Positions 1-62,700 of a stretch of 64,000 nucleotides of DNA are shown piece after piece (within the stretch, counting starts at the first letter, position 1; every line of letters starts with the position of its first letter). Source of the DNA: Naegleria gruberi (taxonomy: Eukaryota); the NCBI GenBank assembly GCA_000004985.1, contig GG738918.1; one strand, 5' to 3'. The position numbers and the translations under genes were made by a program. Under the pieces are notes generated by a model, which worked only from the letters and a program-made list of their open reading frames with translations, was not told the origin of the DNA and searched no databases.

Positions 1-943
1 ATTTAATTTTACAATTCCATTTAATTCTTTAATACCATTTCTATATAATGATGGTGTATATACTTTAATTGCATAAAATAATGCAATATCACCCATCTAT
101 TAAAATTAAATAAAATTTACAAATAAAATATATTAAAACAATAATATATTAATTAAAAACATACCAATGTTAAATAAGGAGGTGCAAATATTTCATTTGT
201 ATTAAATTGATTAAATAAATTAATAGAAGTATTCCAATAATCAAGTGATTTAACATTATATGGAATGTATGCATTTGGATTTTGCCAAATAAAGGAATTA
301 CTTGTTTTATTCATTAAATATAAATTATAACCTGGCCAATTATTAACTTGTTGACCATATAATAAATCTATTTTTGAACCAGTACCTCTTTCAATATAAG
401 TATTAATAGATGAATATGGAAATGCTAAATAATATCCAATTGAAGTAGGTTTATAATTTACATATTTGGAATATAAATATTCTTTCATAAATGTTAAATT
501 AGAAAATGGTAATAAATCATTATTATATTCATCTGCTAATGTTTTACCTATTTGTTGATATGGTATTAATTGATTATCAATAAATTGAATTACTTTATAT
601 TTTGCGTCTATTAATAAAAGGTTACAATAGTTTACAATAAAAATATTACAAAAAAATAATAAAACATACTTGATAGTAATTCTCTTGTTAAATAATTAAT
701 AGCATTTGATGAACCAATAAAAGAAGCTAACCAAACCATTGAACAACAAATTAATATTAATAGAACAATTAATATTATAATAACAAGTCTTAATGATAGA
801 AATTTAGATAGAAATGATTTTCTACCATTATTATTTGATAAAAGTGTTTCATTCTCTTCATCAATTTGATTAGTTATAGTTGCATCATTCTCATTTCCAT
901 TATTATTATTATTCGTATTGGATTCATATTTCTTTAGAGTCAT
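1..943 (-). CDS. multi-pass membrane protein, 5' portion of a gene that continues beyond the window start; three exons in the window (670..943, 165..607, 1..96) with introns 608..669 and 97..164
   Basis: Exon 670..943 begins at the ATG at 943 and encodes an Asn-rich N-terminus plus a hydrophobic TM helix (LVIIILIVLLILICCSMVWLASFIG). GTATGT..AG introns of 62 and 68 nt join the 103-aa and 111-aa ORFs and a further frame running to position 1. No family recognised. Confidence 0.5.
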
Positions 944-12256: not shown

Positions 12257-13075
12257 TTACAAATCCTTAACAATTGAATAGTGATATTTAAATTTCATTT
12301 GATCTTTTCTAATTGAATTAACAGCACTGTTATATGAATCAATTTCAAATGGTTCTTCAACTCCAAATTTCACTAATTCTTCAAATATTTTATCAACTAT
12401 TGCCCATTCTATCAAACATTTAATACTATATTTCTCAATATGATCTTTTTGATTTCTATTAAAACAAACCAAGTTATAGGAAAATAGTGCATGTACAATA
12501 CGAATCTGTTGTTCCTCTGATATTATATTGGATTGTTTGTATTTGAAAAGGAGATCTGAACTTAATTTGAGTGTAGTTGGATCTCCTGTAATCATACTCT
12601 ATTGTTAGTCAGTTAAATATCCCAAATATGTAAATATACTACTTACAGAAATTAACAAGTCAAAATCTTTACATGTGAAAAAGTCATTTCTAATTTCACA
12701 TTTATCACAATAACCATTCAAGAGTGAAAGACATTTTGAGAAGAGTGTTGCCTTGTTTGTCTTCCAAATAATTTCCTTAATACGACCATGTAAAAAACCA
12801 ATTGTATCATTAATACTATTGTAAACTCCATCAATATAATACTCTATAAAGTGATCAAATAAAATATTAATTATTGTTTGAAGATAATGGAAATGAACGT
12901 ATGTTTCAGAATCAGTGGTATCACAAGCTTCATCAAGAGATTGTCCAATCGAGAGTAATGTATTTTCATTAAGGAATGGTTGGATATTGTTATGTTGAGA
13001 ATCATCAAAACAATTAAAAAAATGGGTAAGAAGGATTCGAAAGTGAAAGTAGGTTGATGTAGTAGAAAATGTCAA
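12257..13075 (-). CDS. hypothetical Cys-containing protein; two exons 12647..13075 and 12257..12598
   Basis: 48-nt GTAAGT..AATAG intron (12599..12646) joins the 156-aa and 112-aa ORFs in frame. No recognisable domain. Confidence 0.5.
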
Positions 13076-13814: not shown

Positions 13815-16246
13815 TTAGTTGTTGCGTTGCTTCTTTTCTAAAACAACCCAATCCCATTCATAATCCAAAGAATATTTTTCTCTAATAAATAAATTTAAGA
13901 AAAGGTTTCTAATATAGGTATAGTCTGGTTCTTGGCAAAATTTCAGAGCTCTAGTATAATTTAAATAAGTGGCAAATTCAACAGGGAAACCTCTACAAAG
14001 ATTTACAATCTTGATATTCTTTTTCTTTTGATAAATATTGTTATAGTGGTCTTCCTTTGTGTTACCTGTCAAACCTTGCCAAGGAAGAGTTCCTTTCAAG
14101 AAATACAATAAAACATAACCAAGAGACTCAAGATCATCTCTTCTCGATTGTTCGTATCCTTTGTGATTATTTAAACTTGCATAACGAGCAGTACCTGTCA
14201 AATGTTTGTCTTTTCTTAAAGTAATATGACCCTTGTCTGTCATGTACATTTTTGATAACCCAAAATCAATGAGATATACTATATTTTCACTACCTGGGGA
14301 AGGCAAAGAAGCATTGGTTTGATAAGGAGCATTAAGAAGGTTTAACAACCCTGTAGGGCTATTACCAGGAACCTTTCTTCCCATCAAAAAGTTATCTGGT
14401 TTAATGTCACGGTGCACGAAATTTCTTTTGTGTGTATATTCAATTCTCTGGATCATTTGATCAGCTAACATAAGAACTGTCTTTAAGCTGAATTTACGAC
14501 TACATTTTTTGAATAAGCTTTCCAAGCTTTGACCAAGTAGTTCAAGAACCATAATATTGTATACTCCCTCAGTTCCGAACCAAAACACACGAGGTATACC
14601 ATGACAAATACTCATTATCTGATTATTGGATGAATTGGTTGTGCTATTACTACTAGTAGTACTATTTGGTTGTGCATTCATAAGGTATGAAATTACTTTT
14701 GCTTCATAAATTAATTGTTGTTTTCCACTATTAGCTTGGCCATTTTGTGGAGTTGGTAGTGTTTCTAATTTGACTGCATAATATTCTTCTCGTTGTTCTA
14801 TATTTTGGCACAAGAATACTTCACCAAATGCACCATTACCAAGCTTGCTCATCAATCTATACTTACTACCAACAATCAAACCTACTGGATAATTACTGTT
14901 AGATGAAGAAGGTTGTTGTGTCGTTTGAGTTACTGGTTGTTGTGGTGGATTGTTAGTAGGTTGAACTTGTGTTACTGGTTGTTGTGGAGGAGGCATTTGG
15001 GTTTGATTATTTGGCATTGAAGAAGGATAAGCAGTATTCTGATAAGCATGTGCTTGATTTCCATTATATGCAGGTGAATAACTTCTAGTGTTAATGTTAT
15101 TTTGATATGATCTTTGTACTATTTGTTCATCTGCAACAACTATTGGACAATTAATTGTAGATCCTGGTTGTTGTGGAGGCAATAAAGAATTGCTATTTAC
15201 TCGAGATAGAGAAGTTCCTTTTCCACTGCTAGAAACATAATTTGGAATATTTGAGTAATAGTAATTATTTTGATTAACATTATTTGGATAATTATACATC
15301 AAATTTTGTTGGTGTTGAGAACTTCCTGTTGATGTTGGAATTTGATTACTTAAACTACTCGATGGTCTTTGATATTGATTTGATGAATTTACGGCTAATT
15401 GATTATTTGTTCCTGTATATAAAAGATCATAATAACTATTGGTATTATAACCTCTTTGAGTTTGTTTTGATGTTGGAGTGATGGCTTGTTGACTATCTGT
15501 TTGTCTAAATGTTGTTAATAAAGAATCAACATATGCTGAACCTGAGCCTTCTGGTGGTTGGTGTTGAGGTTGTTGAGTAATGTATGGAGTTGAATCTACA
15601 TGTTGTTGTTGTGGATTGGTTGGACTACGGCTCGTATTTGCATGATAATTTGTTGTATTATAATATGAAGGTGAAGTATAAGAAGGATTTCCTGGAGTAC
15701 CTGTAGTTGTAGTTCCAACCATTCTACGTTGATTATTAATTGAAGAAGAAGTTGGTGTAGTTGGCGTGTTGTAATTTACAGAGGGAAGATAGTTACTACC
15801 TTGTTGAAACATGATTGATGATAAACTATTATTATTGTGCATTACTGGCGAATAAGAAGACATTGAAGGCATGTTAAGAGAATTTGATGGGTTAATTGTA
15901 GAGTATGGAAGAGTATAATGTTGTTGTTTGTTTGATGTCGTCTGGTTATTATAATACTAAATAATATTCATATTATGAACAATTAATTTCTTTTTCAATA
16001 ACTAATAATACATACATTTGTGTTTGGATTTGAATAGGGATAATAGAGCAAATTAGAACGGTCTGTTGGTTGAGGTGTTATTTCTCTCAAATTATTACCA
16101 GCCTCTTCTATTTTGTTTAATACCTTTCCATCATTATGCATGAGGCCTGTAGGTGTTGAATCAATTCCTACTACTCTGGAAGGTGCTGTTTTGTTGGTGA
16201 GAGGTGTTTTATCATCCTTCGCAGGCGTTGAATAAAGATAACTCAT
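13815..16246 (-). CDS. casein kinase I family protein kinase with a ~400-aa N-terminal Q/N/P/S/T/Y-rich low-complexity extension; exons 16016..16246 and 13815..15956
   Basis: 59-nt GTATGT..TTTAG intron (15957..16015) joins the 83-aa ORF in frame to the 685-aa ORF. The kinase domain is close to CK1 delta/epsilon over YRLMSKLGNGAFGEV, HRDIKPDNFLMG, LIDFGLSK, GTARYASLNNHKGYEQSRRDDLESLGYVLLYF. Confidence 0.8.
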
Positions 16247-20299: not shown

Positions 20300-21730
20300 A
20301 TGAACCAACCTCTCCCATCATCTTTACTGGAGAATTTAAATAATCCTGATAACAAGGATGGTTTAAAAACTGTTCCCGATCATGAGAAGAGAGATTATTC
20401 ATCGGTTAAAATTCAAGACATGTTCTATAATAATTGTGTTCCTCTATTTAGGAGTCCTTATTTACATGAATTATATAGTGGACAGGCAGATGATGAATTT
20501 ATTGATTTGGATCAACAACAGGAAGCTGAGATTTCTCAACAACATCAACAAAATTATTTTCATCAATTAAATTCATTCAGAGATTATGAAATTGAATATG
20601 ATGTGATTGAACAGGCAAAGATTGCTGTTTGCATTCCTAACAGAGAGTGGAATGGTGGATTATTAATTCATTGTCATGGACATAGAGCTAAGGGAATTCC
20701 TCTTCAGGCAGATTTGAATCATGATAACATGCCAAACACTTTCAGAGAATTGATTAGCCAAGGCTGGATTGTTTCAATGACTTCATATAGAAGAGAAGGA
20801 ATAATATTGAAAGATGCAATTTTGGATGTTAATAATTTGAGAAATTATGTGGAGGAAAAACATGGACAAATTAAATGTTGTATTCTGGAAGGAAGATCAA
20901 TGGGAGGAGCAATCGTGACATTTATTAGTGAACTCCATCCACATTTATATGATGGAGCTGTTTGTATTGGTGCTGCACTGAGAGTAGACCAGAAAGAAGA
21001 ACCTCTTCCTCATCTTGTTTTACAAAACACTCCTAAATTTCCAATTATTGTAAGTGAAGTTGCAACTTTAAGGTTCTAATGTTTATAGTATTTGACAAAT
21101 ATTAGTGAATTAGGAGAACCTTCGAACTATATTGAAAGGGCAAAGAATAATTCCCTTAAAGAACAAGATATCATAACCCCTAGCTTATGGACAGTCTTTA
21201 GAGAGGGACATAATTTAGTTACAGAGCTCGAGAGAATGTCCGCATTCCAAGCCCTAATTTCTTGGATACGATTCAAAAGTAATATAACAATGAAAGTCAA
21301 TGAGGCTTGTACACTTCCAGTAGCTATTCCAAACTCTGAAGTAGAATTTACTGACTCGGACCCATCTTCAAAAGAAGGAGCTTGGGGTAAAGTCAACCAA
21401 TTATACATCTATGGATCATTTTGTATCAATTTCACAGAAAAAGACTTTGAGAAATTAGGAATTACACAAGGAAAATACTTTACTTTCAACATTTTGACAA
21501 AACAACAGGGTGTCAAGACAGTTAGTGCATCATTTGGATCTTTCCCATTTATTAAGCAAGCAACTGAAGTTGAATGGATTGCATTTGTTAATCCAGTTGA
21601 TAATTACATTGTATTGCATATTAATTCTTACAAATTTACAAACGAATCTAAAAAGATGGGAATTTCCCTTAATGATGCTATTTTTGTTGAAAAGGTCAAA
21701 CCGCTGCCTAAAAGGAAAAATAAGAATTAA
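20300..21730 (+). CDS. alpha/beta-hydrolase-fold protein; exons 20300..21049 and 21089..21730
   Basis: 39-nt GTAAGT..TATAG intron 21050..21088 joins the two ORFs in frame. Nucleophile-elbow motif GRSMGG. No closer family assignment. Confidence 0.55.
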
Positions 21731-31049: not shown

Positions 31050-33503
31050 TTATTTAAAGAGTTTTAATACCGTTTTGAATGTTCTTGTTTGATTCTCATT
31101 AAATATTTTGAGGTTTTGTTTCTTTTTCAGCATGTCATTAATAACGTTTGAATCTTTGTAAACTTTGTGAGGTTTTACAACTTCAGTTTGAACTTTGATA
31201 TTTTTCAGTAGATGGTTAGGACGGTTAGGATTGAGGAAACTATAATTTGGAAGAATGTCCTTGGCAGGTAGTGAATTTAATTGATTTTGAGGGAATTTGG
31301 TAAGAGTCATTTTGGTGGTTTCTTGATGTTGGAGGAAGAAGGAATAATCATCCTTATTTGGAACTGCTTCCAATTTTTCTGAAATAGCAGAACGAATCCT
31401 TTTCAATGTATCTTCTTTTAACCAGTTTGAAAGAACATGAATAAAATCTTCACGATGATCAAATAAGTGTTGAACTGGAGAATTTTCAAATACTTGTCTA
31501 ACCTCAGGTATTGGAACAATATACTTGTGTCTATGTGAAATAGATGATGAAATCTAATATTGACAATCTACTTACTTTGCAGAAACACATGAAGATACAC
31601 AAAATTCTAGTGGATTCAAAATGAAATTATCAGAAGCTGGCACATTAATTGTCAAGAATGAATCTGGTTTACCTTCCACTTCCTTCTCACAATATAAAAC
31701 TAATTCATCAATTGATGGAATTGATTTAGGTTTGTAATATTGTGAATATCCCAAATTCTTTCCCTGAATATAACTCATAAACCAGGCACACATCACCAAA
31801 TAATCCTTCACAATTGGTTGATAGGATACTTCTGCAATCTTTTGTTGGAGTTTCCTTATTGAATTTGCATACTTTTCAATTTGTTCCTGATAGAAAAATG
31901 ATAAAAACTCATTAAATTGTTCTCTAGTCTCAAAAAGTCCAGTTTTAACTTTGGCTTCTCTGTGAAGTTCTCCATAATCAAAATTTAAGAAAATATTCTT
32001 GAATGCATTATTGAAAGCATCCTTCTTTGATTTACCTCTTGCTGTTGTAATGTAGGATTCTCCAATTTTGACCACGACTTGGAAATGTGGTTTTGGTTCT
32101 GCATCAATAATTTCATATTCCTCACATAGAAATTCTCTCTTTCCAAGATTTAATAAGGTAATAAGAAATACCATTGCTTCCTTTGTTGGAATATTATCAA
32201 TGTTAATCTTTGGAAATCCATTTTCCATTTCAGCTTTCTTCTTTGAATTGGATGTTTCAGTATCTTCATTTTCACCTTGCTTGAAATCCTTAATATAATC
32301 AGAATATAATGAAGATAGGAACTTGACATTGATTTTCATTTCACTTGGCTGTTTCAAATCATAATGTATTAAATACTCTCTATTTTCTGAATACTTTTGG
32401 TGAGCAATATATCTATCCATAAATAATTTAATATCAAATCTTCTCGGTTTAGAAATATAATCATTTCCACATAGAATAAATAAAAAGGTCATATCTGTAA
32501 TAATTCTCGATAAATCTTCATCTGATTTAGTTCTACATCGACGAGCAATTTGTTCCTTTAGTTTGGTAACATCATATAATTGATAAAAACCAGGCATATC
32601 TTTCACAAGAGTAATATGTCTATTGCGTGGTAAATTGAGAGCATATAAAACAAAATCTGAATCTCCAGAAACAATCAAATCTCTCTTCTCCTCCTTTTTG
32701 TGATTGTTTTTCTCTGATGAATAAATATGTTCAAGGATTTTAAACTCTCCCTCACCTTCTCTCCCAGCAGGTGAATGATAGAATGCAAGATTATTATTAA
32801 AAGTAGGATTTGTTAGCACCAATGCACCCAATTGCCAAATAACTAGTGAAACTTCTTGCATTAAATTTGTTCCTGGAACAAACCAAACAGAACTAATTGC
32901 CTTCTTTTCATTTCTTTCATTAATTACATTTTTCTGAATGAGTTTCAGGTAAATCTTTTGCACTTCAGTGAGAACAATCTCTTCATCCATATCTGATAAA
33001 TTAATAAATGAAACAAACGTATTTCCAGTATTTGTCATTGCACTATTCAAATATCTTCTAACTTTTTGTGTAATTAATTTACTTCTAGGTGCAGGACCAT
33101 CCACAGAAAAGAATAAACTTTCTCTAGCATCAAAATGATTCAAATATCTCATTACTCCCTCCAAAACAACAGAATGAAAAACCATTCTAGTATCTTGTGG
33201 AATTTCTTCATCTTCTCCTTCTATCTTTGTACCATTATCCTTTTCTGTTGTTGAATCTTGTTCCAAAATTGATTCCTTTCCTTGATTCATTACATTTTGA
33301 TGGTATTTCATCCTATTCATTATCTTTCTAGAACCATGTGTTGATTTATACAGCAGAGTATTAAAATCAAAATAAATATTATCATAAACATCCTCTGGTT
33401 TAATTGAATTATTCCTCCTCGTATTATTTAATTCATCTTTTGTGATGATGAAAGATTCTCCGAAGAGAATTGATAAAGTTTTGTAGAATGAATTAATTCC
33501 CAT
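31050..33503 (-). CDS. XRN-family 5'-3' exonuclease-like protein with a C-terminal dsRNA-binding motif; exons 31576..33503 and 31050..31530
   Basis: N-terminus MGINSFYKTL...YDNIYFDFNTLLYKSTH and FSVDGPAPRSKLITQKVRRY parallel XRN MGVP.FFRWL...FDNLYLDMNGIIH and AIDGVAPRAKMNQQRSRRF. A 45-nt GTAAGT..ATAG intron (31531..31575) is in frame. Near the C-terminus PKPHFQVVVKIGESYITTARGKSKKDAFNNAFKNIF has the dsRBD signature (..G.G.SKK.A...AA). Confidence 0.6.
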
Positions 33504-43826: not shown

Positions 43827-46800
43827 TTATTCTAAAAGTCTTCTTCTTCTATCGATATCATCATCCTCATCATCACTTGTAAAATTGCTAACATCATCCT
43901 CATCTTCCTCTTCATCCTCATCAGCTATTGCTGGTATTGACACTTCCTCAATATCTGCCAATAATTTAGCTTTAGTGAAAACTGTACCAATACCACGTCC
44001 AAAATATTCACAAACCAGAGAATAACCATCCAACTTCTTGGTATTAAGTTGCTTAAAGAAGGATTCGTGTTGTTCACTCGACTCTTCGAATTTTCTCTTT
44101 CTTTGGAGAATATCTCTGTGCTTATCAGAACAAACTCTACATTCACCTTCATTACCAACAAGGAGACATCTTTGATGGTATGAGTGATTACACATGAAAT
44201 GTACAGCAGGCAAGTCCAATTGAGCATTACAGAAAGTACAAGTGGTAGCTTGGAAAGTTTTGGCACTGGTTTGTAAATCGTAAATTTCCTTTCTCATTTG
44301 AGCAGTTTCAGTTTGGAATTCCTTGATCTTTTCTACATCTTCTCTTATCATTTCTTGTTCTTTTTGAATTTTAGAAATCAGATAGTCCTTTACAGAATAG
44401 AGTTTGGTCTTTTCATTCTTACCAAGAATTTGAACAACCAGTAATGGAGGTAAAATTTCATCCTTTTCAATCTTTTCTAATACAATAGCTAATTCTTCTT
44501 CAACATTATCATCCAATGTGGCAAAATATGTGAGAACTTGAACCCACAAATTTGGATCCTTGTCACCATATTGATTAACAGAGGCGATTACATTCTTGTA
44601 ATCACGTTGCTCCATATAATATTGGATAATATAATAGTGAAGACCCAAAGTATCATAAATCTTGAGTACACCTTCTTTAAAGTTTTGTGATTGGACAAGA
44701 ACAAGAACGTGCTCCTTATCATAGTTAGATTGTGGATGGTCGAGTGTATAAAGCAATCTATCTTTAAAGCTCAAATTGGCAATATCTGTGCTTGGTGGCT
44801 GAATTTCATATCTATCAGAAATGCCTTGAGTTTGCTCAAGTTCTGGTCTTTTCTTAGAATCAGTATCCAAATATTTAAGATAAAGTTCAATGAGCGTATT
44901 GTACACAACCTTGGAATGTGATGTATCTGGTCGAAGAGTTCTCCAAATAACATTTTCCAAAAATATCATTAACCAGTATTGATCCTTACTTGGGAAGCAA
45001 TGAATATATGACTCTGGTTTTGGTTTAGCATGTTCAATGTGTTGATTATTATACATATCTTCATATCCGGTAGTTTTAACAATTTGAGATTCAAGATTAG
45101 CAGATGATTGTTTCAAACCTAGAAGTACATTCAGAATACCCCCTTCTTTCTTCTTTTCTGCTTGGTTGCTTGAATCATTGGAGTTTGGTATAATTCTAAG
45201 CTTGTAATTATCAATGATTCTCTTTTGAGTTAACTTGATATCACTATCCAAAACTCTATTTGTTTCAGCAGGGTGAATTGGGAAATATTCTGTACACAAT
45301 CTTATGAGAGCGTTAGTAGTCTCTTTTGGTAAATGTGAAATGAGTGTTTTACCATAGGTTTTCAGATAACTTTCAGCTTCAGGTAAGGCAAGAGATTCAA
45401 TATATTTGAGCGCTCTTCTAAAGTTCTCTTTAGAATCAACCTTCTCGCCATTATCCTTGTCCAAATTATCTGTATCAAAGTCCTCCAAGTGAATCTTAAT
45501 GTACCAATCGTGTTGTTTGTGTTTCATGGCCAAAATGAGGGCATGTTCCTTGTAGCCGGCTTTTCTACAAACTCTAATAGCTGTCTCTACATCGTACATA
45601 AGCTTATCTTGCATACTGATAAACTTGTCGAGTTTTTCCTTTCTTTCATCCTTCAATTTGGTGTAACAGTTTAACAAGAGGGTTGTGTGATCAGAGGTGG
45701 CAAGACGTTTTTCGTGAAGGGTTTCAAGATATTCTGTAAGGTTACGAATTCTGTTTGCATCCAAGAATTTTCTGATAACATAGGATGGTTCCAATCTACC
45801 AATAGTTCTACAAAATTGTTTCATAGCTCCATCATAATCTTTCTTTGAATACAAGTGATCACCATATTGTTTTGAAATTTCAAACAAGTAATTACTGTCA
45901 AGTTGTTCACTATCAACTAAACTGATGGCAATCGAATAAAAGTTCTTTTGTAAAAGCAATTCCAACTTGGATTGGGTATCTTTTTCTTCCAAAAGGAACA
46001 TTTGTTGTTCAGATTTGTTTTCATCAATATTCGACAATAAAAAGACATTACCCCATTCTTGAAGAATATGTGTAATGTGTAATTTGTCACTCGAATATCT
46101 AAAGGCAATATACTTGTTTTTCAAATCATAAATAGTAATAACTTGTTGAGATTTGCTACTGGTTGTGTTAATATCTGAACTAATAACAATTAAATAATTT
46201 CTGAACCAATGTGACAAGATCTTTTTACCTTCAAAAGCAAAACAAGATCCTTTTCCTTCAGGTTTAAAGAACCAAACAGCAGATTTAGAAGAAACCACAA
46301 AATCTCCATCATTACTCAAAGTACTACATCCAACTTCACATCCAATAGTGTCATCTAAAATTACTTTTGATTGTTCAAGTGCTCTTTGTGATGTACTGCT
46401 ATTAGTATTAATAGAATATTTAAAAACTTGAGTAAGTGAACAACAGAATAAAGTATAATCATTAGGTGAATTACCATATCTCTTAAATCCTAATCCTGTT
46501 ATTCTCTCATTTGGAGCACCATCCAATAAAAACACTTTGTGTGATGACTTTCCTCCTTGTTTTGTAAAATCACCTTCAAATATAATAATTTTACCATTTC
46601 CTAAACCAAGTGCAATACAATTAAAATCTTGATTTGCTTCAAAACAACACACCGGATAAGGTTCCATATCTTTGATCTGACTAAATATCTTGATATCTCT
46701 TACTAATTGATATTGACCAAAACTTGTGTGACCTTCCTTTGTGTGTTCTTTATACTTGTCAAGAGAATAAATTTTCAATACATCCTGATAGGCTTCTCCA

Positions 46801-47041
46801 CCATCATCACCAACAACAACTAAACAATTAGATTTAGCAATATGTTTGATGTGATTAACTCTTGCTTCAAAGGCTTTACATTGACGTGTATTTAAATTTT
46901 TATCCATAACATGAAAAGTACCACGATTATCTCCGAATATAATATTACTTCTTCCGCTAGTACAACAAGTTACATTGGTCTGAGAGAAAAATTTTGATGA
47001 TTTCTCATCACTCACTGTATGCTTGTCAAAGAAGTTGAATT
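43827..47041 (-). CDS. VPS11: Vps11 (HOPS/CORVET core subunit) with C-terminal RING-H2
   Basis: ATG at 47041 (MWKKFNFFDK, as in metazoan VPS11 WRRFVFFDKE). N-terminal beta-propeller, clathrin-heavy-chain-repeat region, C-terminal CTFCNAQLDLPAVHFMCNHSYHQRCL...CRVCS RING. Confidence 0.8.
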
Positions 47042-47205
47042 TCTTCCACATTTTTTTTTGATGAAAAGATTTTTTAGTTTTTAAAAATTGATGATCCCGA
47101 ATAGAATATGCAATTCTGTCGTTCATGAAACTGTGATGATTAGTAATGGATTAACAAAATGTTTAAAGTCAAGCTATTGAGAATGCAAAGATGACAGTGA
47201 AGGGT

Positions 47206-49741
47206 TTATTTTGCATCTATTTTTCGTTTGGATTTTCGAAGTAAATTGCTAACAATTTTACATGGAGTGATGAGCGATAATCTTTCACAAATGTCATACA
47301 TGGCTCTGTAATTGTTTTGAAACATGTAATCTTGAGCCAGTTCCAAATCTTTAGAAACTTTGATTTGTAAATCAGTTGCATCAGTTCTTGCACTTTCTAA
47401 ACTGTATATTCTTGTTGGTGTTTCTTTTCCCTTTAGTAAAATGTAATCAGCAAAATAGCAAACAAATTCATTCTTCACATGTTGATAGGTATTCTCACTG
47501 ATTAGAATATTGGAACCATAATATCTATTCAAAGATTGAAGCTTGGATCCAATATTAACATCATCTCCAATAGCTGTGAAATTCAATCGATTCTCACTTC
47601 CCATACTGCCATACATCATATTTCCACTGCTGACACTAACGTAAATTGAGAGATCAATATCAATTTGTCTTTCATTCCTCCACATTATATTTAATTCATC
47701 GATAATCTCCAAAGCTTCCATTGCAGCTTTGCAAGCTCTCACTTCATGCTCCTCAACTGGCATTGACGAATCATTCCAAACAGCTTGTAATCTATCTCCA
47801 TTTATCATATCAATTAATCCTCTATGATCTTCCATTGCCTTTGTTAAACTTCCAAAATAATCAGTCATCACAGATACAAATATTGATGTTTCAGTTAACT
47901 CTGCCAATTGAGTAAAATCCTTAATACTAGAAACAAGAATTGTCATATTTTGAAGTGTCAATCCAACATCTAAATAATGTTCGTCACTAATCACTTTTTT
48001 CATTATTGTAGGTGAAACAAATTTAGAAAATGCTGAAACTCCTCTCTTTAGAGAATTAATTCCATTCTCCATCTCTCCAATATCATAGAATATTTGACCA
48101 GCAGTTGTGATTTTGGTATTATCACTTTCGCTCGCAAGACTCTTATCACTCAATATCTTGGAGAGTTTCTTGTGAACATGATTTAAGGGTTGTGTGAAAA
48201 GTTGAACAATTACAAAAAGACACAACGTTCCAGCAACGAGAATAACAATGAATACCACTACAGATGTCATACCACTTGAGAGAATTTCTGCAAATATATC
48301 TGCATCTACTGATCCAATAACCAATGCCAAACTCAATCCATATGGATCAACTACTGGAGTTATCACAACATTCTTTCCACGATATTTCAAACTGATTGGT
48401 ACGTTAGAGGTAATGTTTTTCAGTAACTCCTTATCTTGTATATAATTAGCAATTTCAAAAATTTCACCATCTCCAGTATGGACAGTGAACTTGGTTGTGT
48501 TATATCTACTTGAGGCAATAACATTTCCATTCGTTTCCATGATGAAACTATAGCTAATGAAATTGTAAGATCTTGAAGTAGAATTCAGGAAGGAATTCAA
48601 TCCTTTCAGTGCAAACACCTCAGCAACAGCTCCAAATAAATGATCCTTATGTTTAAAATTCGTTATGCTTATATCAATAGAATCAATGCTCTTTCCTGTC
48701 TTACAAGCTTGTGTGATATTCTCTTTTACATAGATAGGATAAGCAATACTAATGGATGGCTCACCAATAGTTGAAATGTAAAGCTCAGTCCATCTCTGCC
48801 CAGTTGCTAATCCTTCCTTGAAAGGATAGTACCACGGTCTTAAATGTAAATCAAAGGCTACTCTCATTTAATATACTCAATTAGTATTGGGAATACTTAC
48901 TAAAAGGCTCAACAAACAAAAAGAGGTTGTCTTTGAGTGGATTCTCAAATGGATTTTCTGAAATATGGTAATAGTACATCGCAGTTCCTGTTCCATTTAT
49001 CAGTAGAACATATGGTGTAGAAATATCCAGTGTTCCAGCATAATTCCTCAAATAATTTCCGTATTGAATTGTTGTGAGTGGTGATTTGTGAATATAGACT
49101 GATCTGAGATATTTGAGAAAAATTGCCCACTCGGTAATATTTTTCAATGGAAATCCATTCTCTACTTCCATTTTTACCTGTTGGATTATCAGATTTGAAG
49201 TGTTGATGATTTTTCCAATTTCAAATGTTACATAACTTTGAGTTTGTTGAGCTTGAAATCTCGAAACTCGCAAAAGAACACTATTTCCAGACGTGTACAT
49301 TAGTATGAAAGAAGGAATCAATCCAATGAGTCCCTGAATAATGAAGAGAACCAACAGGACATGACTAATTCTCAATCCTCTCGAACAATTATACATTCTT
49401 GGTTTTTTGTTTTCTTGTGTTTCTGGCATGTGACGTAAATGTTCTTCCCCATGACGTGACTCCTCGAATGTGAAAACAGTATTTCTCCTTCCATAGATTG
49501 GATCTGGTTTGGTGGTTGGATGAATAATGGATGAGGTGGTACTGTTACCATGGGAAGGTCTTCTATGCAGAGGGGGTGGTGTGTTTCTTTCGACATGTAT
49601 TGTTCTCTCAAATGGATCTTCATCAACAATTTCGATGGGTGTAGATGTTTTCGACTCCTCAATTGTGATTTCCTCTTGAATTGATGATGAGGGAGGTACC
49701 TTCCTAGAAACCAAAAGATCCTCACTATTGTTTGGAATCAT
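47206..49741 (-). CDS. receptor-type class III adenylyl cyclase (ACG-like): extracellular sensor domain, one TM, cytoplasmic cyclase domain; exons 48901..49741 and 47206..48860, or a frameshift between them
   Basis: TM helix SVVVFIVILVAGTLCLFVIVQLF. Cyclase core ILVSSIKDFTQLAE...VNIGSKLQSL...YILLKGKETPTRIYSL. The two ORFs are in different frames. A 40-nt GTAAGT..GAGAG intron (48861..48900) would restore the frame (..FVEPF-I-AFDLHLRPW..). Confidence 0.6.
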
Positions 49742-49931: not shown

Positions 49932-51191
49932 TTAATAGAGTCCATGTGTAGTTAATAGATTTCTTAAACGAGAACACATTTTGAAAGCATTGGTGAGATG
50001 ATCCAAACCAGATGAGAAACTGGCAACAGTAATTTTTGAAATATACTCCTCACTAAAATATCCAATTTCATTATCTTCAGTGATAAAATGTCTATGTCGA
50101 GAGTCGCTACTTAAATTTGAGTTCTTTAGTTGTGTTACAGAGGATGTAGCAATAGAAGTATAACTCAAACCATAAACTCCTACATGAAGTTGAGCATTTG
50201 TAATTGAAAATTCAATTAATGTTTCCTTAGGTAAACGAGGATGGAATGATTGTTGAAGAAGTTCAATATTAGCTTTTTCGGATATTGAGCTTGATAGTCT
50301 ATATTCATCAGTCAAAAATCTCAATCCACCATATGTTGTCAATTGTTCTCTTCCTTGTTGCACCAATATCATTACACGTTCCAAAATTGTTAAAATAGTA
50401 GTGACATCTCGTTCAATTTTAGATGTTGTTTTCGATAAATATGTACTGTTCATAAGATCAACTTCATCATCTCCTTCCAACACAATATTTGAATTTTCAG
50501 AATATTTCTCAATGTCAATGTTTTTCATCTTATTTAAAGCATAATCAGCCATGTGGTGAGCCCTTTGAATTTGGCTTAAAGTATACGGATCATTTGGTCT
50601 GATTTCGGCTTCACATGATTGTTTCATTTTGTGAAGCTTAAAATTAATTTTACCTCCCAAGATACGATATCCGTCCACTAGTAAATATCCTTTTAAAATA
50701 GCGTGATTTTGGTCATTAATATGTAATTGTATACGTTCGGCATTGTTTTTTGCTCTAAAACTATTAGTAGCATTAAATTTAGTTGGGGTAGCGGGTATTC
50801 CTGGTGTTGAAGGTGTTTGAGGTTCGTCTTTTGGATTATCTTGTTGTTGATCCGATGATGAGGCTATTGTACTTGTTGGTTGTTGATTATTATTATTGGA
50901 ATTATTATTACTATTATTTTCCATAGATTGAAGGTGTTTAACTTCACCTCCTAAAAGACCAACAGCTTGTTGAATTTCATTGATAATTTTACTCCATTGT
51001 TGTGGAACAATATCGTAGAGAAGGTGTCGAAGCTCCTTCATCATTGTTTCTTGTTCTAAAGAAGCGATCTCCTCCTCTTTCATGTTCTTTACATCTTTCA
51101 ACATACTATTCGATGTTGTTGAAGATGTGTTGATATTACTCGTGTTGATACTAATATTGTTGCTTCCCGTCGATGGCGATGATGACCACAT
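49932..51191 (-). CDS. hypothetical protein, tentatively Rogdi-like leucine-zipper family
   Basis: LEQETMMKELRHLLYDIVPQQWSKIINEIQQAV resembles the Rogdi N-terminus ([24 protein letters not shown]). Weak C-terminal parallels. Low-complexity N-rich insert. Confidence 0.3.
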   Translation of the reverse strand: MWSSSPSTGSNNISINTSNINTSSTTSNSMLKDVKNMKEEEIASLEQETMMKELRHLLYDIVPQQWSKIINEIQQAVGLLGGEVKHLQSMENNSNNNSNNNNQQPTSTIASSSDQQQDNPKDEPQTPSTPGIPATPTKFNATNSFRAKNNAERIQLHINDQNHAILKGYLLVDGYRILGGKINFKLHKMKQSCEAEIRPNDPYTLSQIQRAHHMADYALNKMKNIDIEKYSENSNIVLEGDDEVDLMNSTYLSKTTSKIERDVTTILTILERVMILVQQGREQLTTYGGLRFLTDEYRLSSSISEKANIELLQQSFHPRLPKETLIEFSITNAQLHVGVYGLSYTSIATSSVTQLKNSNLSSDSRHRHFITEDNEIGYFSEEYISKITVASFSSGLDHLTNAFKMCSRLRNLLTTHGLY

Positions 51192-51297: not shown

Positions 51298-53980
51298 TTA
51301 TTGTTTGAAATACGAACCAACGTAACCTCTTCCCGATCTTGAGGCTGGCACTCCTCTCTCTGTTGATTTAGCTCTGTGGCCAGGTGCAGTAGCTTTAGAG
51401 GAAAGAATTGATTTGGATTCATTGTTGGCAACTTGACTATTTGCAACCATTGACTTTAACTGACTTCTTTCTTCAATTAATCGTTTAAGGCTTTCTTTAC
51501 ATTGGTTATATTCTTTTTGAAGGTTATTTACATATTCAACAGCTTGTTGCAAAAGGGTTTCTTTTTCTTCTAATCTAGTTGACATCTTTCTGTTAAATTC
51601 TACTGAAATGTTGAGTTGAATTCTAGTATCTAGGAGTTTAGTCTTAGCATCCATAGCAAGAGCAATATCATGCAATTGTTTCAATACTTCTTGACTTGAT
51701 TCCATATCTTCGCTCTTCAGTAGTTCCAAAACTCTGTCTAATCCCATATGAATTTCAGAAAGTTCATTTCTTGTGGATCCTAGCTCTCTTTGCATTTCTT
51801 TTACAACCTCGTTGTGCAATGCAATTCTAGAAGAGGCTTGTTTAATCTCTTTTTCAATACCTGTTTGTGGGTTTGGTTCGATGAGGTCCTTTCTTTCCTC
51901 TAACAATAATTCAATTTCTTTCTTCATCTCTTCAATTACTGCAATGTGTTCAGATCTTTCCTTATTGATGGCATCTTGGAGCTCTTTCTTATGAGCCATG
52001 TTTGAATCGTTCAAGTTTTGTTGTGTAGCTTCTAATTTCTTTTCAAGTGCATCAATTAATTCTTGCTTCTTTGCAACTAGTTGTCTCAAGTTGGAATCGA
52101 GTTCAAGCTCCTCAATTCTTTCCTTGAATAAAGAATTTTCTTCTTTCAACACCTCAACTTCCATTTCCAAGTTTGAAATCTTTTCTTTGAGTAACCTCTC
52201 AGATCCAGCCTTGCTTAACTTGGCAGATTCCTCTTCTTCGTACTTTTTCTTAAGCTTTGCAACAAGCTCGTCAGCTTGGTCTTGCAATTGGAGATTCATA
52301 TTCTTTAATTCGTCATTTTCATTTTGAAGTAATTTTACCTCTTCTTCGTCAACCCCTGATGATGGATCTTGCAATAATTTCGCATACTTTTCTGAAACCA
52401 ATTTGTGTGCTTCTTTTTCAGTATCAAAATCCCTTGCCAAGTCTTCCGTCTTTTCCAAGAGTTGGTTGTAATCGGTGGTGAGAGTATTGAGCTCGTATTG
52501 GTACATTTCACATTGGTTTTGAATATCAGTCTTTTCCTTTTCTAACTTTTCAATCATTTCGTTAACTGGAGAGGAGTCGGCTTGAGAGGATTTAAATTCC
52601 TCTATTTGCAGATTCAAGTCGAGAATTTTACTCTCTAACTCTTGAATTTGCTCCTCCTTCTCGTTGAGTTGTTCCTTATTTACCTTAAATTCTTCCTCTA
52701 AAAATTGAGTATTCTCAGATAATTTCTTTAATCTTGACACTTCATCTTGTAATATTCTTAACTTATCATCAGTATCGATAGAAACTCTTGGTGTTCTGAC
52801 AGACTTCTTCAGTTCGTCATTTTCTGCCAATAGTGATTCTATTTGTTGCTGTTGTGAGTTAAGCAATGTGAGATACTCTTCTTCGTTAGAGTTTTCCTTG
52901 AGGTGCTCTTGAATGATTGAAACAGTCTTGTTCACATTATCTGCATTAGTCAACAGTTGACTGAGATTTGTACTATTTTCAACAATTGGTTCTCTTTCTT
53001 TTTCGGCTTCCTTTGCATAGAAAGCTGATAATTCTGCTGTTAGGTTGTGATTTTCTTCCTCAATTTGTCTCTTTTCGACTTCTCTAGCATTCAACAAGTC
53101 TTGCTTTTCAAGTAATTGTCTCTTGATTTCTGCAAATGCTTGATTAGTTTCTTCCATTTCTAGAATGGTCTTGGAGTATAAATCTCTCAATTCCTTGTTT
53201 TCTCTCAAGAGTGCAGCTTCATCCCTTCCTTCATTCTTAGGTTTTGATTTTTCATTATCATATTGAGAAAGAAGATCATCATACTTGGATCTGAGTGATG
53301 TTAATTCGTCCATTAATTCTTGTCGTTTCAAAGTTGCAATCTCTGCCTCCTTTCTGTATTTCTCCTTCTTTTCTTGCAGTACCTTGAATTCATCTTCCAT
53401 ATCTTTTACATTGAGTTGGAGTTTTTCAATTTCTGCTTGTCTTTGTTCTCTTTCCTTTTCTTGAACTGATATAATATTCCTGATTAATGTAAATTAGAAG
53501 AGTGATGATATTTACATACCTTTGATTGACGAGTTCCTTCTCAGAAATGTCCAAAACCTTTGAAATTTCAACAACTTGACCTCTCAGGGTTTCATTCTCT
53601 TCTCCTACAAGGTTCATATGCTCCTCTATGGTTTTATTCCTATCAGAGAGAATTTTAATTTCCTTATTATATTCTAACTTAATTTGATTAATATCAGAGA
53701 GTTGAGATTCATTATTAGAGAGTCTTGATATTGATTCCTTTTGTTTTTGTATTTCCTCCTTCAACTTTTTAATATCATTTTCTCTTCTAGAATTGATGGT
53801 TCTTAAGGCTTCGGCCTTTAATGATGATCAGCATTAAATTGTATTTGCCTTAATACCTACCTCCTTCTCTGCAAAAAGTACCTCTTCTACTAAGACCGAT
53901 AGATCCTTCTTCCTGCTGATTAACTCTCCTTCCAACTCTTGGATTCGGTAGTTTGCCTCTTCTAAGGATTTAACTGGCAT
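51298..53980 (-). CDS. long coiled-coil protein (~865 aa); exons 53861..53980, 53520..53815, 51298..53479
   Basis: ATG at 53980 (MPVKSLEEANYRIQELEGEL). Intron 53816..53860 (45 nt; alternative donor gives 66 nt). 40-nt GTATGT..TCAG intron 53480..53519 joins the 112-aa and 700-aa ORFs. Heptad-rich E/K/L/Q sequence throughout. Confidence 0.55.
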
Positions 53981-55363: not shown

Positions 55364-56959
55364 ATGTCTCTACGACTATTCGAAAGCAAAATGATCTACC
55401 ACTCTGTAGATCAATCATCAAATTCTTCATCAAATTCAACAACGATCAATAGCTACAGTGCATGTCCCGATTGGTTTCCTTATCATTTAGCACTGAATTT
55501 AAATTCAAGTAATTCTTTGAATATGGAATGTCCTGATACTATAGTTGTTCCTATATTTGCTGGAGTTGTTTTATTCTGTTTTATTATATTCACTGTAACT
55601 GGTTTAATTTGTTTATTTTGGAAGAGAAATTCTGCCTACATTAGAGCTAGGTCATTCTCTTCATTGCTAATGACCATTTTGTCAAACACGTTGATTTATG
55701 GCATGGTTTCAATGAGATGCTTGATTGGAAAGGATGATTTTCCTTGTTTTTTAATGTCATTGTCGACCTTCCTTATTGGACCTTTATTTTCCATTCCTTC
55801 AATTGTCAGAGGAATTCGATTAATTATATTATACAGGACTACATTGGAAAGAACAAAGACTTTCAATAACACGGACACCTCTTCCATGAATAAGGTTGAG
55901 AATTTTAATTGTGGAGAAACAACAGTTACTAATTGGTCAGACGAAGTGGAAAAGAGAGATTCCAAGCAACTGAAATATCTTAATCTTGCCAATCGATTAT
56001 TACAAAGCCATTTGTTTACAATAGTATTTACAACCTTGATGCTTTTTTTGCATATTCTTATTTGGATGACTATTGGACTGATTGAGGATCAATACTATTC
56101 CTCTAATAGATTCATCACCACAAATAGTAGTATGTTTAATTATAAGGGGTGTTACTCAAGTGGACCTTCTGGAATTATAATCACTTCCTTTGTTGCGTTT
56201 TATCTGGCAATTGATTTGATTGTAATTATTGTCTTATTCTTTACAACAGAAAAAGATACATTTAGAATCAAATCAGAGTTGATCATCCTGTCAGTTTCGA
56301 GATTGTTTCTTGTTGTGATTTATTTCATAGCTACCCAAGTTCAGTTTTTCAAATATCTGGCAAGAATTATTCCAAACAATCACATTTTTCTTTCGTATGC
56401 TTTCGTTGAGATTATTATTTCAATTCTGTGGCCTGTTTTCAGAGAATCAATGCAGAAACGAGGTGAGCATAAAGTGTTGGAAAGTGAAATTGAATCCGTG
56501 CTCAACAACAAGGAAACTTTGAAGGTTTTGTTGGATTTTGCAAGGAGAAGTTTTTGTCCTGAAGGAATTCTATTTTACAAAGATGTGCAACATTACAAAA
56601 AATTGGTAATCAAGTATCAAGATCATGAATTCAATACAGCATTTCATAACACAGAAACAATCAAGAAACATCGATCAAATGTGCAAAAGTTAGTTTCGAA
56701 TATTGTGAAAAGCTACTTGGCTGAAGGAAGTGTCAATGAATTGAATTTGCCAAATGTCAAAATATTGAGGAATGACATTAATGCTAAACTAGCAGAATTG
56801 GAACATAACCATTCACCTTATCCCGTCGATTTATTTGATTCTGCTCAAGTGGAAACATTACTTACAATTCTTGGATTATACGAAAGATTGAAATATTCCA
56901 ACAAGTCAATTCTAGACTATTCTACACATTGGAGATCAAAAACAACTCCTCACATCTGA
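55364..56959 (+). CDS. 7-transmembrane protein with C-terminal RGS domain (paralog B)
   Basis: ATG at 55364. Same architecture as 41830..43440: CPDWFPYHL...MECPDTIVVPI extracellular Cys pair, seven helices, and KETLKVLLDFARRSFCPEGILFYKDVQHYKKL RGS core. Conserved C-terminal blocks LAEGSVNELNLPNVK and VDLFDS also match the paralog. Confidence 0.65.
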   Translation: MSLRLFESKMIYHSVDQSSNSSSNSTTINSYSACPDWFPYHLALNLNSSNSLNMECPDTIVVPIFAGVVLFCFIIFTVTGLICLFWKRNSAYIRARSFSSLLMTILSNTLIYGMVSMRCLIGKDDFPCFLMSLSTFLIGPLFSIPSIVRGIRLIILYRTTLERTKTFNNTDTSSMNKVENFNCGETTVTNWSDEVEKRDSKQLKYLNLANRLLQSHLFTIVFTTLMLFLHILIWMTIGLIEDQYYSSNRFITTNSSMFNYKGCYSSGPSGIIITSFVAFYLAIDLIVIIVLFFTTEKDTFRIKSELIILSVSRLFLVVIYFIATQVQFFKYLARIIPNNHIFLSYAFVEIIISILWPVFRESMQKRGEHKVLESEIESVLNNKETLKVLLDFARRSFCPEGILFYKDVQHYKKLVIKYQDHEFNTAFHNTETIKKHRSNVQKLVSNIVKSYLAEGSVNELNLPNVKILRNDINAKLAELEHNHSPYPVDLFDSAQVETLLTILGLYERLKYSNKSILDYSTHWRSKTTPHI

Positions 56960-59764: not shown

Positions 59765-62700
59765 ATGGATCCAAAGAAGAAGGGTGAATTATTAGCCCCA
59801 ACTTTTGACAAACTTCAAAAGTTTTCTGAAATGATTACAGCTGCCCTATTCACAGCTCCAATTCATTGTCAGATATATAAACAAAAACTTAGACAAGCTG
59901 CTGAGGTGGAGAGAACAGTCGAGTCTGAGAATCAGGTACAATTGGTTTCTGCCTCCTCACCAACACCAACCACTAATCTTTTATCGACACCATCAGGTTT
60001 ATCAGGTGGAAGTGTGAGTTCTCCAGTGTTGGCTGGTACCTCTCCATTGATTGTTGGTGTTTCCACGTTGAATATTACTAGTGGTGATGATGGTGCTTCT
60101 TCTAATAATAATTCGGCAACATCACCTTCATCTTCATCTTCTACAACAACAACAAATAATTTGCAACCTTCTACAACAACAACATCAGCATCAGCATCAA
60201 CAACAACAGAAGTTGTAGCAAATAGTGATGAAAAGTTAGTTGAGAATAGTTTGAATGGTGGTACCACCACAGTAGAGGCCTCTGCAACAACAACTCCTTC
60301 TATTACTACTACAACAACAACAACAACAACAGCAGCAAATATTGTTGAAGAAGAAGAAGATAAATTTGAGGCTAGAAAAATTGAGGTCGAAGTTGATTGG
60401 GAGAGTTTTAACGAATTGTTTAATACATTGTTTAATGAGGGAGCTCCTGAGGTGATTGATACAATTTTGAATTCATTCCTTTCAAAGTCTTGTGCTGCCT
60501 CTCTGATTGGTACTTTAATATCACAATACTGTAAACCACCACAAAATCGTAAGTTATTTTCTAATAATTGGTTCATGTGATGTATATAATAATAATTATA
60601 TGTTTAATTAATTAACAATATTGTATATGAATACAAAACGACAAAACGACCACTATTGATCTCGTATATATTATTAAATTGTATTCATCCACATACTAAT
60701 TGTATCTCTCGTTAATCATGATAATACAACAATAATATCAAAATGACAATATTAAATTAATACTAATAATATTGTGAATAATAATAATAATAACAACAAA
60801 TAACAACAAATTATAATAGATAATGAAAAATCAAAACACGTATATATTAGAGATTTTCTTCAACAAAACTTGAAAAAGTACGTGATTAAATACAGTGATG
60901 ATCCACGTGATGTTGGATATTATAAAGATGGTGTTATTGTTGATGTGGTTGAAATTGAAGTTACTCAAGATGAAACTATTCAATGGATATTTAGAGATAT
61001 AACTAAAAACCTTGACAGATGTACAGATATTCAACAATTTATCATTGAAAAGTATTATATTCCAGAGTTTGAGAGAAGAATTTTGAATGAATTTTTGCAT
61101 CCACTCAAATTACAAGTGAATTGGGATCACATGAAATATGCTGCCTTTGATTATCCACGTGCAGTTGAGAGAATTTACAAGGAACAATCACAATGTGTTC
61201 TAGAACAAGTTTATTTAGCAATGAGTGATATTTGTGCATATGAGGAGGATGATCTAGTTGATGCTCTTTCACTTGGTTTAACAACAATTGCTATTACTCT
61301 TCAACCAAGTCCACACTCTGGCACAGGAGAAAGACCAAAGAAGGATTTTGACATTCATGAAGCAACTAGAACACTTACATTACGTTTGGTTTTAGAAGGA
61401 CATGATATGAATGGCATGTTCTTTAGAGATGAATTAAAGCCAATTATCAAATTGGCTGGTTTGTACAGTACAGATATTACACCACTTTTCAAATTTGAAA
61501 TTTTAGCTTCTGCAGCTCAATTGTATAAAGTACGCGAATATGCTGATTTGAGTGGTATGAAGAGATTACTTTCTAGACCAGATTTGAATTGGTGGACTCC
61601 AACTGAAGTTGAAAAATCAATCATTGATAAGGCACGTGTCTTTATCAATGAAAATATTCGTAGACGTGACTCAAAGAAGAGTGGTTCACAACATTCCAAC
61701 GATGAAAATATCATGAATAATTATGAAGATGATGGTATGGGAGAGGATGAAGGTTATGATGACGATGAAAATATGAATAATCCATATCATGAAGAAATTA
61801 TTAAGGGATGGCATGTTATCAAAGTTAACAAACATCAAATCAATCAAGATCGTTATTTAATTTTGACTGACAAGGCATATTGGACATTAAAATATGATGC
61901 CAAGACAGGTTTTGATCCAAAACACTTCAAGAGACACGATATTTGCAATTTCTATTTCACAGAACAAGGTGATATTGAAAATACAAAGAATGGTGCCATT
62001 CAAGCTCTTAAAGTTTACTTGCATGAAAAGAGAAAGAAGGGCATGATTTCTGCTGAAGAATCTGCTGCCATTGTAGGCAATGGAAGAAAGGGTTCTATCA
62101 GTGTTCGTGCCTCTATGAAGTTTACAACCTCTGCTGCAGGTCAACAATTTGCCTTCTTGCAAACATTGAGTTATCAATTATTGCAGGACAGTGGCATTCC
62201 TAGAACTCGTGTGAAAAAGAAGAAGGCCGAAAGAGCACGACCAGAAAGAAATAAGGATGTAACTGAATATGCTAGTTTATTCTTACCTCACAGTGAGGAA
62301 AAGGAGTTTGATGTTGAGGATATTAAGAGTATTCTGACGGAAATTTCTTGGTGTTTGTTTGCTGTTGCCAATGCAAACTCTAAGAGAATTCACCCTAACT
62401 ATAAGGTCATCGAGCCATTCTTCTCAATCAAAGATTTTACAGTTCCAAAATCAAAGTGGTTCTCTCCATTTGTTAACATGTTTAAGAGTCCTAAGAAAAC
62501 ATCAACAACAACTACCACCAAGGAGAAGAAGATTGCCCGTAAGGATCACGGAAAATCTGGACATACTGATCCAACAAAAGAAGATGAAGAAGAAGGACAA
62601 ACTTCAACAACTTCTGGAGAATTCGTCACAAAGAAACAACCACTTCCAGTTGACAAACAACAACATACCAAACCAATTCTTAAAATCAGACAAGAAGAAC

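Follow-up and report, generated by a model that had tools for sequence, protein, structure and literature searches.

Naegleria is known for its many cyclases. Among the receptor-type class III cyclases described elsewhere, Dictyostelium ACG carries an extracellular sensor of tandem-PDC fold flanked by transmembrane (TM) segments, a plan that the gene considered here has in common with it, and the ACG proteins are defined by their CHASE sensor (PMC4399386). Bacteria have class III adenylate cyclases of a comparable build, with a dCache_1 sensor. The gene lies on the minus strand at positions 47206..49741 of a stretch of 64,000 nucleotides (nt) of Naegleria gruberi DNA (contig GG738918.1), the whole of which is called the window here and has about 33% GC. 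A previous reading made from the sequence alone (the sequence-only reading) saw an outside sensor, the membrane and a class III cyclase-type domain, and this general layout is borne out. The same reading assigned the gene to the osmosensing ACG type, with its two halves out of frame unless a 40-nt intron is removed. The analysis below indicates that the locus is, very probably, one intact two-exon N. gruberi gene with a very short U2-type GT-AG intron, encoding a dCache receptor with a cyclase-homology domain.

Two long open reading frames (ORFs) are found on the minus strand, and the ORF list and a frame check agree with the earlier description that their frames differ. ORF1 (48881..49741) has 286 amino acids (aa) and ORF2 (47206..48867) has 553 aa. 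The ORFs had been said to overlap by 14 nt, but they do not overlap: 13 nt separate the ORF1 stop (48883..48881) from the ORF2 ATG at 48867. Upstream of ORF2 its own frame is closed by stops at 48879 and 48870, the ORF1-frame stop at 48883 lies 5' of both of these, and stops close the third frame at 48902, 48899, 48866 and 48860. Because there are stops in all three frames between the ORFs, no single indel, sequencing error or ribosomal shift can join them, and removal of a block of sequence is needed. A single indel and a programmed ribosomal frameshift are ruled out on these grounds.

Which block is removed? On the minus strand the junction consists, in this order, of ...GAGCCTTTTA, GTAAGTATTCCCAATACTAATTGAGTATATTAAATGAGAG, TAG and CCTTTGAT... 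The 5' splice site GTAAGT is read directly at 48895..48900, where the sequence-only reading had seen it. A branch-point-like ACTAAT follows at 48880..48885 (intron positions 16-21); its function is putative, and CTAAT or CTAAC is also present in other short intron candidates of the window. Two acceptors stand in tandem at 48858..48863, a GAG that ends at 48861 and a TAG that ends at 48858, which give introns of 40 and 43 nt, respectively, and both restore the reading frame. Removal of the 40 nt at 48861..48900 does join the halves into one open coding sequence (CDS) of 831 codons, as had been stated. It is not the sole solution of the frame, however, as introns of 43, 88, 94, 178 and 193 nt from the same donor are also in frame. 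The favoured intron is that of 43 nt (48858..48900, minus strand, GTAAGTATTCCCAATACTAATTGAGTATATTAAATGAGAGTAG), which has stops in all three frames inside it. Two other AG acceptors, at 38 nt (AG at 48863) and at 25 nt, lead to an immediate premature stop, and alternative donors are rejected, as there is no further GT upstream of the ORF1 stop.

The splice signals stand out against the background of the window. GTAAGT is scarce, with 16 copies on both strands compared with a median of 44 when the same letters are permuted. The composite pattern GTAAGT-N(5-25)-CTAAY-N(8-30)-YAG has two matches in 128 kb (both window strands), where 0.48 are expected, and one of the two falls exactly at the ORF1/ORF2 junction. 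By the ORF list and splice arithmetic, exon 1 (CDS 48901..49741, minus strand, ATG at 49741..49739) has a phase 1 end, so that the base at 48901 is the only one of the split codon in this exon, and it codes for the N-terminal cytosolic part, TM1 and the sensor's first half. Exon 2 (CDS 47206..48857, minus strand, stop TAA at 47208..47206) encodes the remaining sensor, TM2, the linker, the cyclase-homology domain and a C-terminal helical tail.

The choice of acceptor depends on the homologues. The closest database matches of the translated product are the N. gruberi proteins P0001 (785 aa) and P0002 (869 aa, 61% identity), and no other close relatives were among the matches. When P0002 is searched against the window with tblastn, residues 38-318 map to 49669..48902 and residues 325-866 to 48840..47218, the latter in exon 2. 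The six unmatched P0002 residues (RFKPSH) use 18 of the 61 intervening bases and therefore leave 43 for the intron. Six residues between PF and RPW are found both in P0002 and in the more distant P0013 (PFKPIE). The latter is encoded without interruption by one ORF of a metagenomic contig (L001, 499..2802), and it thus serves as an intron-free template for the junction. Removal of 43 nt results in gapless colinearity with P0002 and P0013, with the Phe of these proteins aligned with the Phe of TFDLHL, and the insert has no counterpart in the homologues. In global alignments to P0002 the 43-nt model scores 2539, followed by the models with introns of 40 nt (2528), 88 nt (2489), 94 nt (2478), 178 nt (2362) and 193 nt (2342). 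These sequence comparisons make the TAG at 48858 the likeliest acceptor, with an intron of 43 nt.

The alternative that survives best, possible but doubtful, is an intron of exactly 40 nt (48861..48900) ending in GAG, with an 831-aa product that reads ...VEPF-IAFDLHL-RPWY. This intron is in frame and gives an open CDS, its AG is nearer the putative branch point than the TAG is, and its alignment score to P0002 is merely 11 units under that of the 43-nt intron. It requires, however, the insertion of one residue relative to both closest relatives, P0002 and P0013, and a GAG ending occurs in none of the eight other ORF-joining intron candidates of the window, all of which end in YAG (TAG or CAG). 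In eukaryotes generally, no acceptor trinucleotide is favoured less than GAG. Three considerations speak against the TAG. The preference for 43 over 40 nt is a one-residue difference in alignments to relatives that are 40-61% identical; the acceptor statistics come from nine introns only, one of them validated by homology, and GAG acceptors are possible; and a first-AG rule favours the AGs at intron positions 38 and 40, which precede the TAG, although use of position 38 leads to a premature stop. Taken together, 43 nt would appear fairly clearly the likelier of the two lengths. GAG could be a minor or alternative site, and both tandem acceptors might be used. Thus the earlier proposal of a very short GT-AG intron that joins the two halves holds, but not its exact acceptor, as the 43-nt TAG form fits the homologues better.

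Are introns of this size to be expected in N. gruberi? The annotation of this genome has a mean intron length of 203 bp, and N. fowleri RNA-seq reads were mapped with a 30-bp minimum intron (PMC8296547). In the related Acrasis, introns are 9-95 bp (PMC11589745). The second match to the composite pattern in the window is a 39-nt sequence at 21050..21088 (plus strand), of the form GTAAGT…CTAAT…TAG. Read-through of these 39 nt meets two stops, whereas their removal produces ...KFPII joined to YLTNISELG..., which aligns without gaps to homologues from N. lovaniensis, Willaertia magna and bacteria. The claim that comparable short introns are present elsewhere in the window is upheld, with this one confirmed by homology, and it argues that introns of about 40 nt with GTAAGT/CTAAY/YAG signals are genuine in the N. 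gruberi genome. It should be weighed against a spliced, intact receptor gene that splicing in vivo is here inferred from sequence.

A pseudogene, or an assembly or sequencing error with the halves truly out of frame, had been held in reserve by the sequence-only reading. Such an origin is very unlikely. The degenerate active site of the cyclase domain, described below, could be read as decay, but the same catalytic substitutions are present in the intact paralogue P0002 at 61% identity, and this speaks for a function that has been kept and against recent decay. Given the stops in three frames between the ORFs, the frame is not recovered by any one indel, and the interrupting 43 nt are absent from homologues and carry a complete set of splice signals. 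Apart from this insert the ORFs are undamaged over their 286 and 553 codons. Disabling mutations were not found beyond the 43-nt insert, and the remaining CDS is open and colinear with P0002.

If an intron of 178 nt (48723..48900, AAG acceptor) is removed, the translation is exactly that of the public model of the gene, P0001 ('predicted protein [Naegleria gruberi]'). This model has the same start, stop and donor as the corrected gene and is identical in sequence outside the junction, but owing to this intron it is without 45 residues of the sensor core. Is the deposited 785-aa protein nevertheless the right one? Its intron is in frame and uses the same donor, and yet this is highly improbable in view of what is discarded. 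The segment in question (48723..48857, minus strand, 135 nt or 45 codons, encoding FDLHLRPWYYPFKEGLATGQRWTELYISTIGEPSISIAYPIYV) is an open frame, for which the chance is about 0.03 at the base composition of the window, and 21 of 44 residues of its product are identical to P0002. In alignments of 13 to 27 family members it holds RPWY together with the one Trp of the sensor that is invariant and a Pro that is nearly so, and the 178-nt intron thus takes out the sensor motif that is best conserved across the family (RPWY…W…P). The homologous stretch in the AlphaFold model of P0002 is part of a high-confidence core, with a predicted local distance difference test (pLDDT) score of 85-91, and one of the core beta-strands of the distal PDC module lies within it. 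The alignment score to P0002 also drops, from 2539 with the 43-nt intron to 2362. The public model therefore probably splices the gene wrongly. The 830-aa and 831-aa products have no exact match in a collection of 15 billion proteins.

With the 43-nt intron removed (or the 40-nt one), splicing would yield a membrane receptor of 830 aa (or 831 aa). Its predicted parts are, in order, a cytosolic low-complexity N-terminus, TM1, an extracellular double-Cache ligand-binding domain that could be glycosylated, TM2, a helical linker with a transducer motif of the FSK(Y/F)VP type, a class IIIb cyclase-homology domain and a helical tail. Only one TM segment had been described, but two hydrophobic segments bracket the sensor. 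TM1 (aa 127-149, HVLLVLFIIQGLIGLIPSFILMY; 49295..49363, minus strand) is detected in a hydropathy scan and is a helix in the paralogue model, and TM2 (aa 477-500, MTSVVVFIVILVAGTLCLFVIVQL; 48199..48270, minus strand) is detected by hydropathy. Between them lies the double-Cache (tandem PDC) sensor (aa 150-476; 48271..49294, minus strand, interrupted by the intron), which has seven N-x-S/T sequons for N-glycosylation.

The sensor is best assigned as a dCache/tandem-PDC domain and not as CHASE. Several lines of evidence lead to this assignment. Among 27 aligned family members, dCache_1 is found by Pfam in nine (E<=0.01, best 8.8e-17) and MCP-like_PDC_1 in six; Guanylate_cyc is present in 26 and HAMP in two. 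CHASE has no Pfam match in the window protein or in any of the 27. A profile built from heterolobosean sensors alone matches, weakly (E 0.006-0.04), dCache ligand-binding domains only when compared with the PDB, and the best-matching stretch is RPWY…PIY. The P0002 model shows a long N-terminal helix and two PDC modules between two TM segments. Two points detract from the assignment: the dCache_1 score of the window protein itself is 28.6-32.4 bits, below the cut-off of 45, and the structural evidence is from a paralogue of 61% identity, which is modelled with moderate confidence (mean pLDDT 72.5).

The class III (IIIb-type) nucleotidyl cyclase homology domain (aa 583-765; 47404..47952, minus strand) lies after the membrane segments and is recognized by Pfam PF00211 (E 1.3e-11, 44.8 bits vs a cut-off of 21.9). 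The Thr of NFTAIG aligns with the Thr of CyaC and CyaB, as in class IIIb, which in the classification of Linder and Schultz reportedly has Thr (or Ser) at the second substrate-specifying position in place of Asp. In HMMER alignments to CyaB and CyaC, and in the family table, the catalytic positions are S-M-D-R-T-N-K, compared with the canonical D-K-D-R-T-N-R. A complete set has two Asp that bind metal, a Lys together with Asp or Thr for the substrate, and Asn and Arg for the transition state. Three of the seven catalytic residues are thus replaced, i.e. the metal Asp1 by Ser, the adenine-specifying Lys by Met and the transition-state Arg by Lys, which makes the activity implied by the name adenylyl cyclase doubtful. 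The roles of these residues, and the division of functions between the two subunits of the dimer, have been described (PMC4174876). Since the replacements fall in both halves of the active site, a homodimer would probably be inactive as an adenylyl cyclase, and complementation as a simple 'C1-like' or 'C2-like' partner is predicted to be impaired. That the spliced product is an active osmosensing adenylyl cyclase of the ACG type, as had been proposed, is highly improbable, as the defining CHASE domain has no match, the sensor is assigned to dCache/tandem-PDC and the catalytic residues argue against osmolyte-activated synthesis of cyclic AMP. A caution applies to the loss of activity: some class III cyclases with non-canonical residues keep activity, and 'inactive' is a prediction.

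How might such a receptor function? Ligand binding to the dCache domain would act, via TM2 and then the coiled linker, on a dimer of cyclase domains, where both the ligand and the dimerization are presumed. The protein is more likely to act as a regulatory or pseudo-enzyme partner, e.g. paired with catalytically intact paralogues, or it may have very low or altered activity. P0002 has the same architecture and the same Ser/Met/Lys replacements as the window protein, and differs in an additional change of Asp2 to Glu. Substitutions common to two intact paralogues would point to a retained, non-canonical role. As a tentative idea, the gene and P0002 could constitute a conserved pair of 'pseudo-cyclase' dCache receptors, with cyclase domains that are degenerate yet intact. 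Such a pair might signal via asymmetric heterodimers with complete paralogues, much as the degenerate site of mammalian C1/C2 cyclases does, or by nucleotide binding without turnover. Family members P0014, P0162, P0033, P0039 and P0134 keep the canonical catalytic set, unlike the window protein. About half of the sampled heterolobosean dCache-cyclase relatives have at least one catalytic residue replaced, which would suggest that dead cyclase domains are used systematically within the very large cyclase repertoire of Naegleria and Willaertia.

Other features of the window touch on these subjects. Sequence signals mark candidate introns on the minus strand at 53480..53519 (40 nt), 31531..31575 (45 nt), 12599..12646 (48 nt), 15957..16015 (59 nt) and 608..669 (62 nt), and on the plus strand at 56130..56249 (120 nt) and 60549..60819 (271 nt). 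All seven join long ORFs and have GTAAGT or GTATGT at the start and TAG or CAG at the end. In a Pfam scan of the other spliced candidates no domain spans a junction. An exact look-up of the spliced models of four other short-intron genes found none in the protein collection, a result that is uninformative on the public use of short introns. The 39-nt intron at 21050..21088 sits in an S33 hydrolase-like gene, for which the only N. gruberi match is a 276-aa fragment (P0164), with no full-length model returned by the protein search; in the public set this gene may be missing or wrongly modelled. The N. fowleri homologue P0165 has a three-residue insertion, TKQ, at the junction of this intron (alignment columns ~312-314), which suggests either that the intron position is shared and the splice site has been placed 9 nt away in the annotation, or that the shift is real.

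The receptor gene is closely flanked. An intronless VPS11 gene (HOPS/CORVET subunit; 43827..47126, minus strand) and a Rogdi-like gene (49932..51191, minus strand) are separated from it by spacers of just 79 and 190 nt, respectively. A further gene, at 1..~950 on the minus strand, runs off the start of the window. Its product has an N-rich N-terminus, one TM segment and a helical stalk, and hhalign finds a weak similarity (probability 61%) to TM1 plus the stalk in the dCache-cyclase family, so that a further receptor built on similar lines may be encoded here.

The main value of these findings is the corrected gene model, as the deposited protein is without 45 residues of a conserved ligand-binding core. 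P0001 lacks them because the gene caller skipped an intron of 40-43 nt and chose one of 178 nt. Intron-length settings and the handling of tandem acceptors thus matter for the annotation of heterolobosean genomes. A change of label is also proposed, from 'ACG-like adenylyl cyclase' to 'dCache receptor with a degenerate class IIIb cyclase-homology domain'. A cyclase domain that is probably dead is relevant to counts and studies of the many Naegleria cyclases. The gene is otherwise an ordinary one, and the pseudo-cyclase idea is a modest lead.

To what known systems is the receptor related? It belongs in a bacterial-type dCache-cyclase family that is expanded in Heterolobosea, and not with Dictyostelium ACG. 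A HMMER scan with P0002 shows a family of the same layout in Willaertia magna, N. gruberi and metagenomes (P0013-P0039 are among the members), and bacterial proteins from the same scan align over both the sensor and the cyclase. P0013, the closest relative outside Naegleria, is a single ORF of 767 codons without an intron, encoded on L001 (1..4122 of metagenome contig 3300002220, 38% GC), where its gene adjoins a DUF2207 gene. The bacterial dCache_1-HAMP-class III adenylate cyclases (e.g. P0089, P0104, P0140 and P0158) have the same order of parts as the window protein, and they have in common with it the (D)PRxRPWY sensor motif, the F-x-x-YVP linker motif and the class IIIb domain. All seven catalytic residues and a recognizable HAMP domain are retained in these cyclases, and across all five bacterial relatives the catalytic set is canonical save for one Ser in place of Thr. 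The Naegleria protein differs from the bacterial ones by its long cytosolic N-terminal extension, N-glycosylation sequons, intron and degenerate active site. CyaB of P. aeruginosa (3r5g) and CyaC of S. platensis (1wc1) have Asp1, Lys and Arg where the Naegleria protein has Ser, Met and Lys. Dictyostelium ACG has a CHASE sensor and is an active, osmolyte-stimulated enzyme, whereas the window protein has a dCache sensor and degenerate catalytic residues; the gene resembles ACG in design only.

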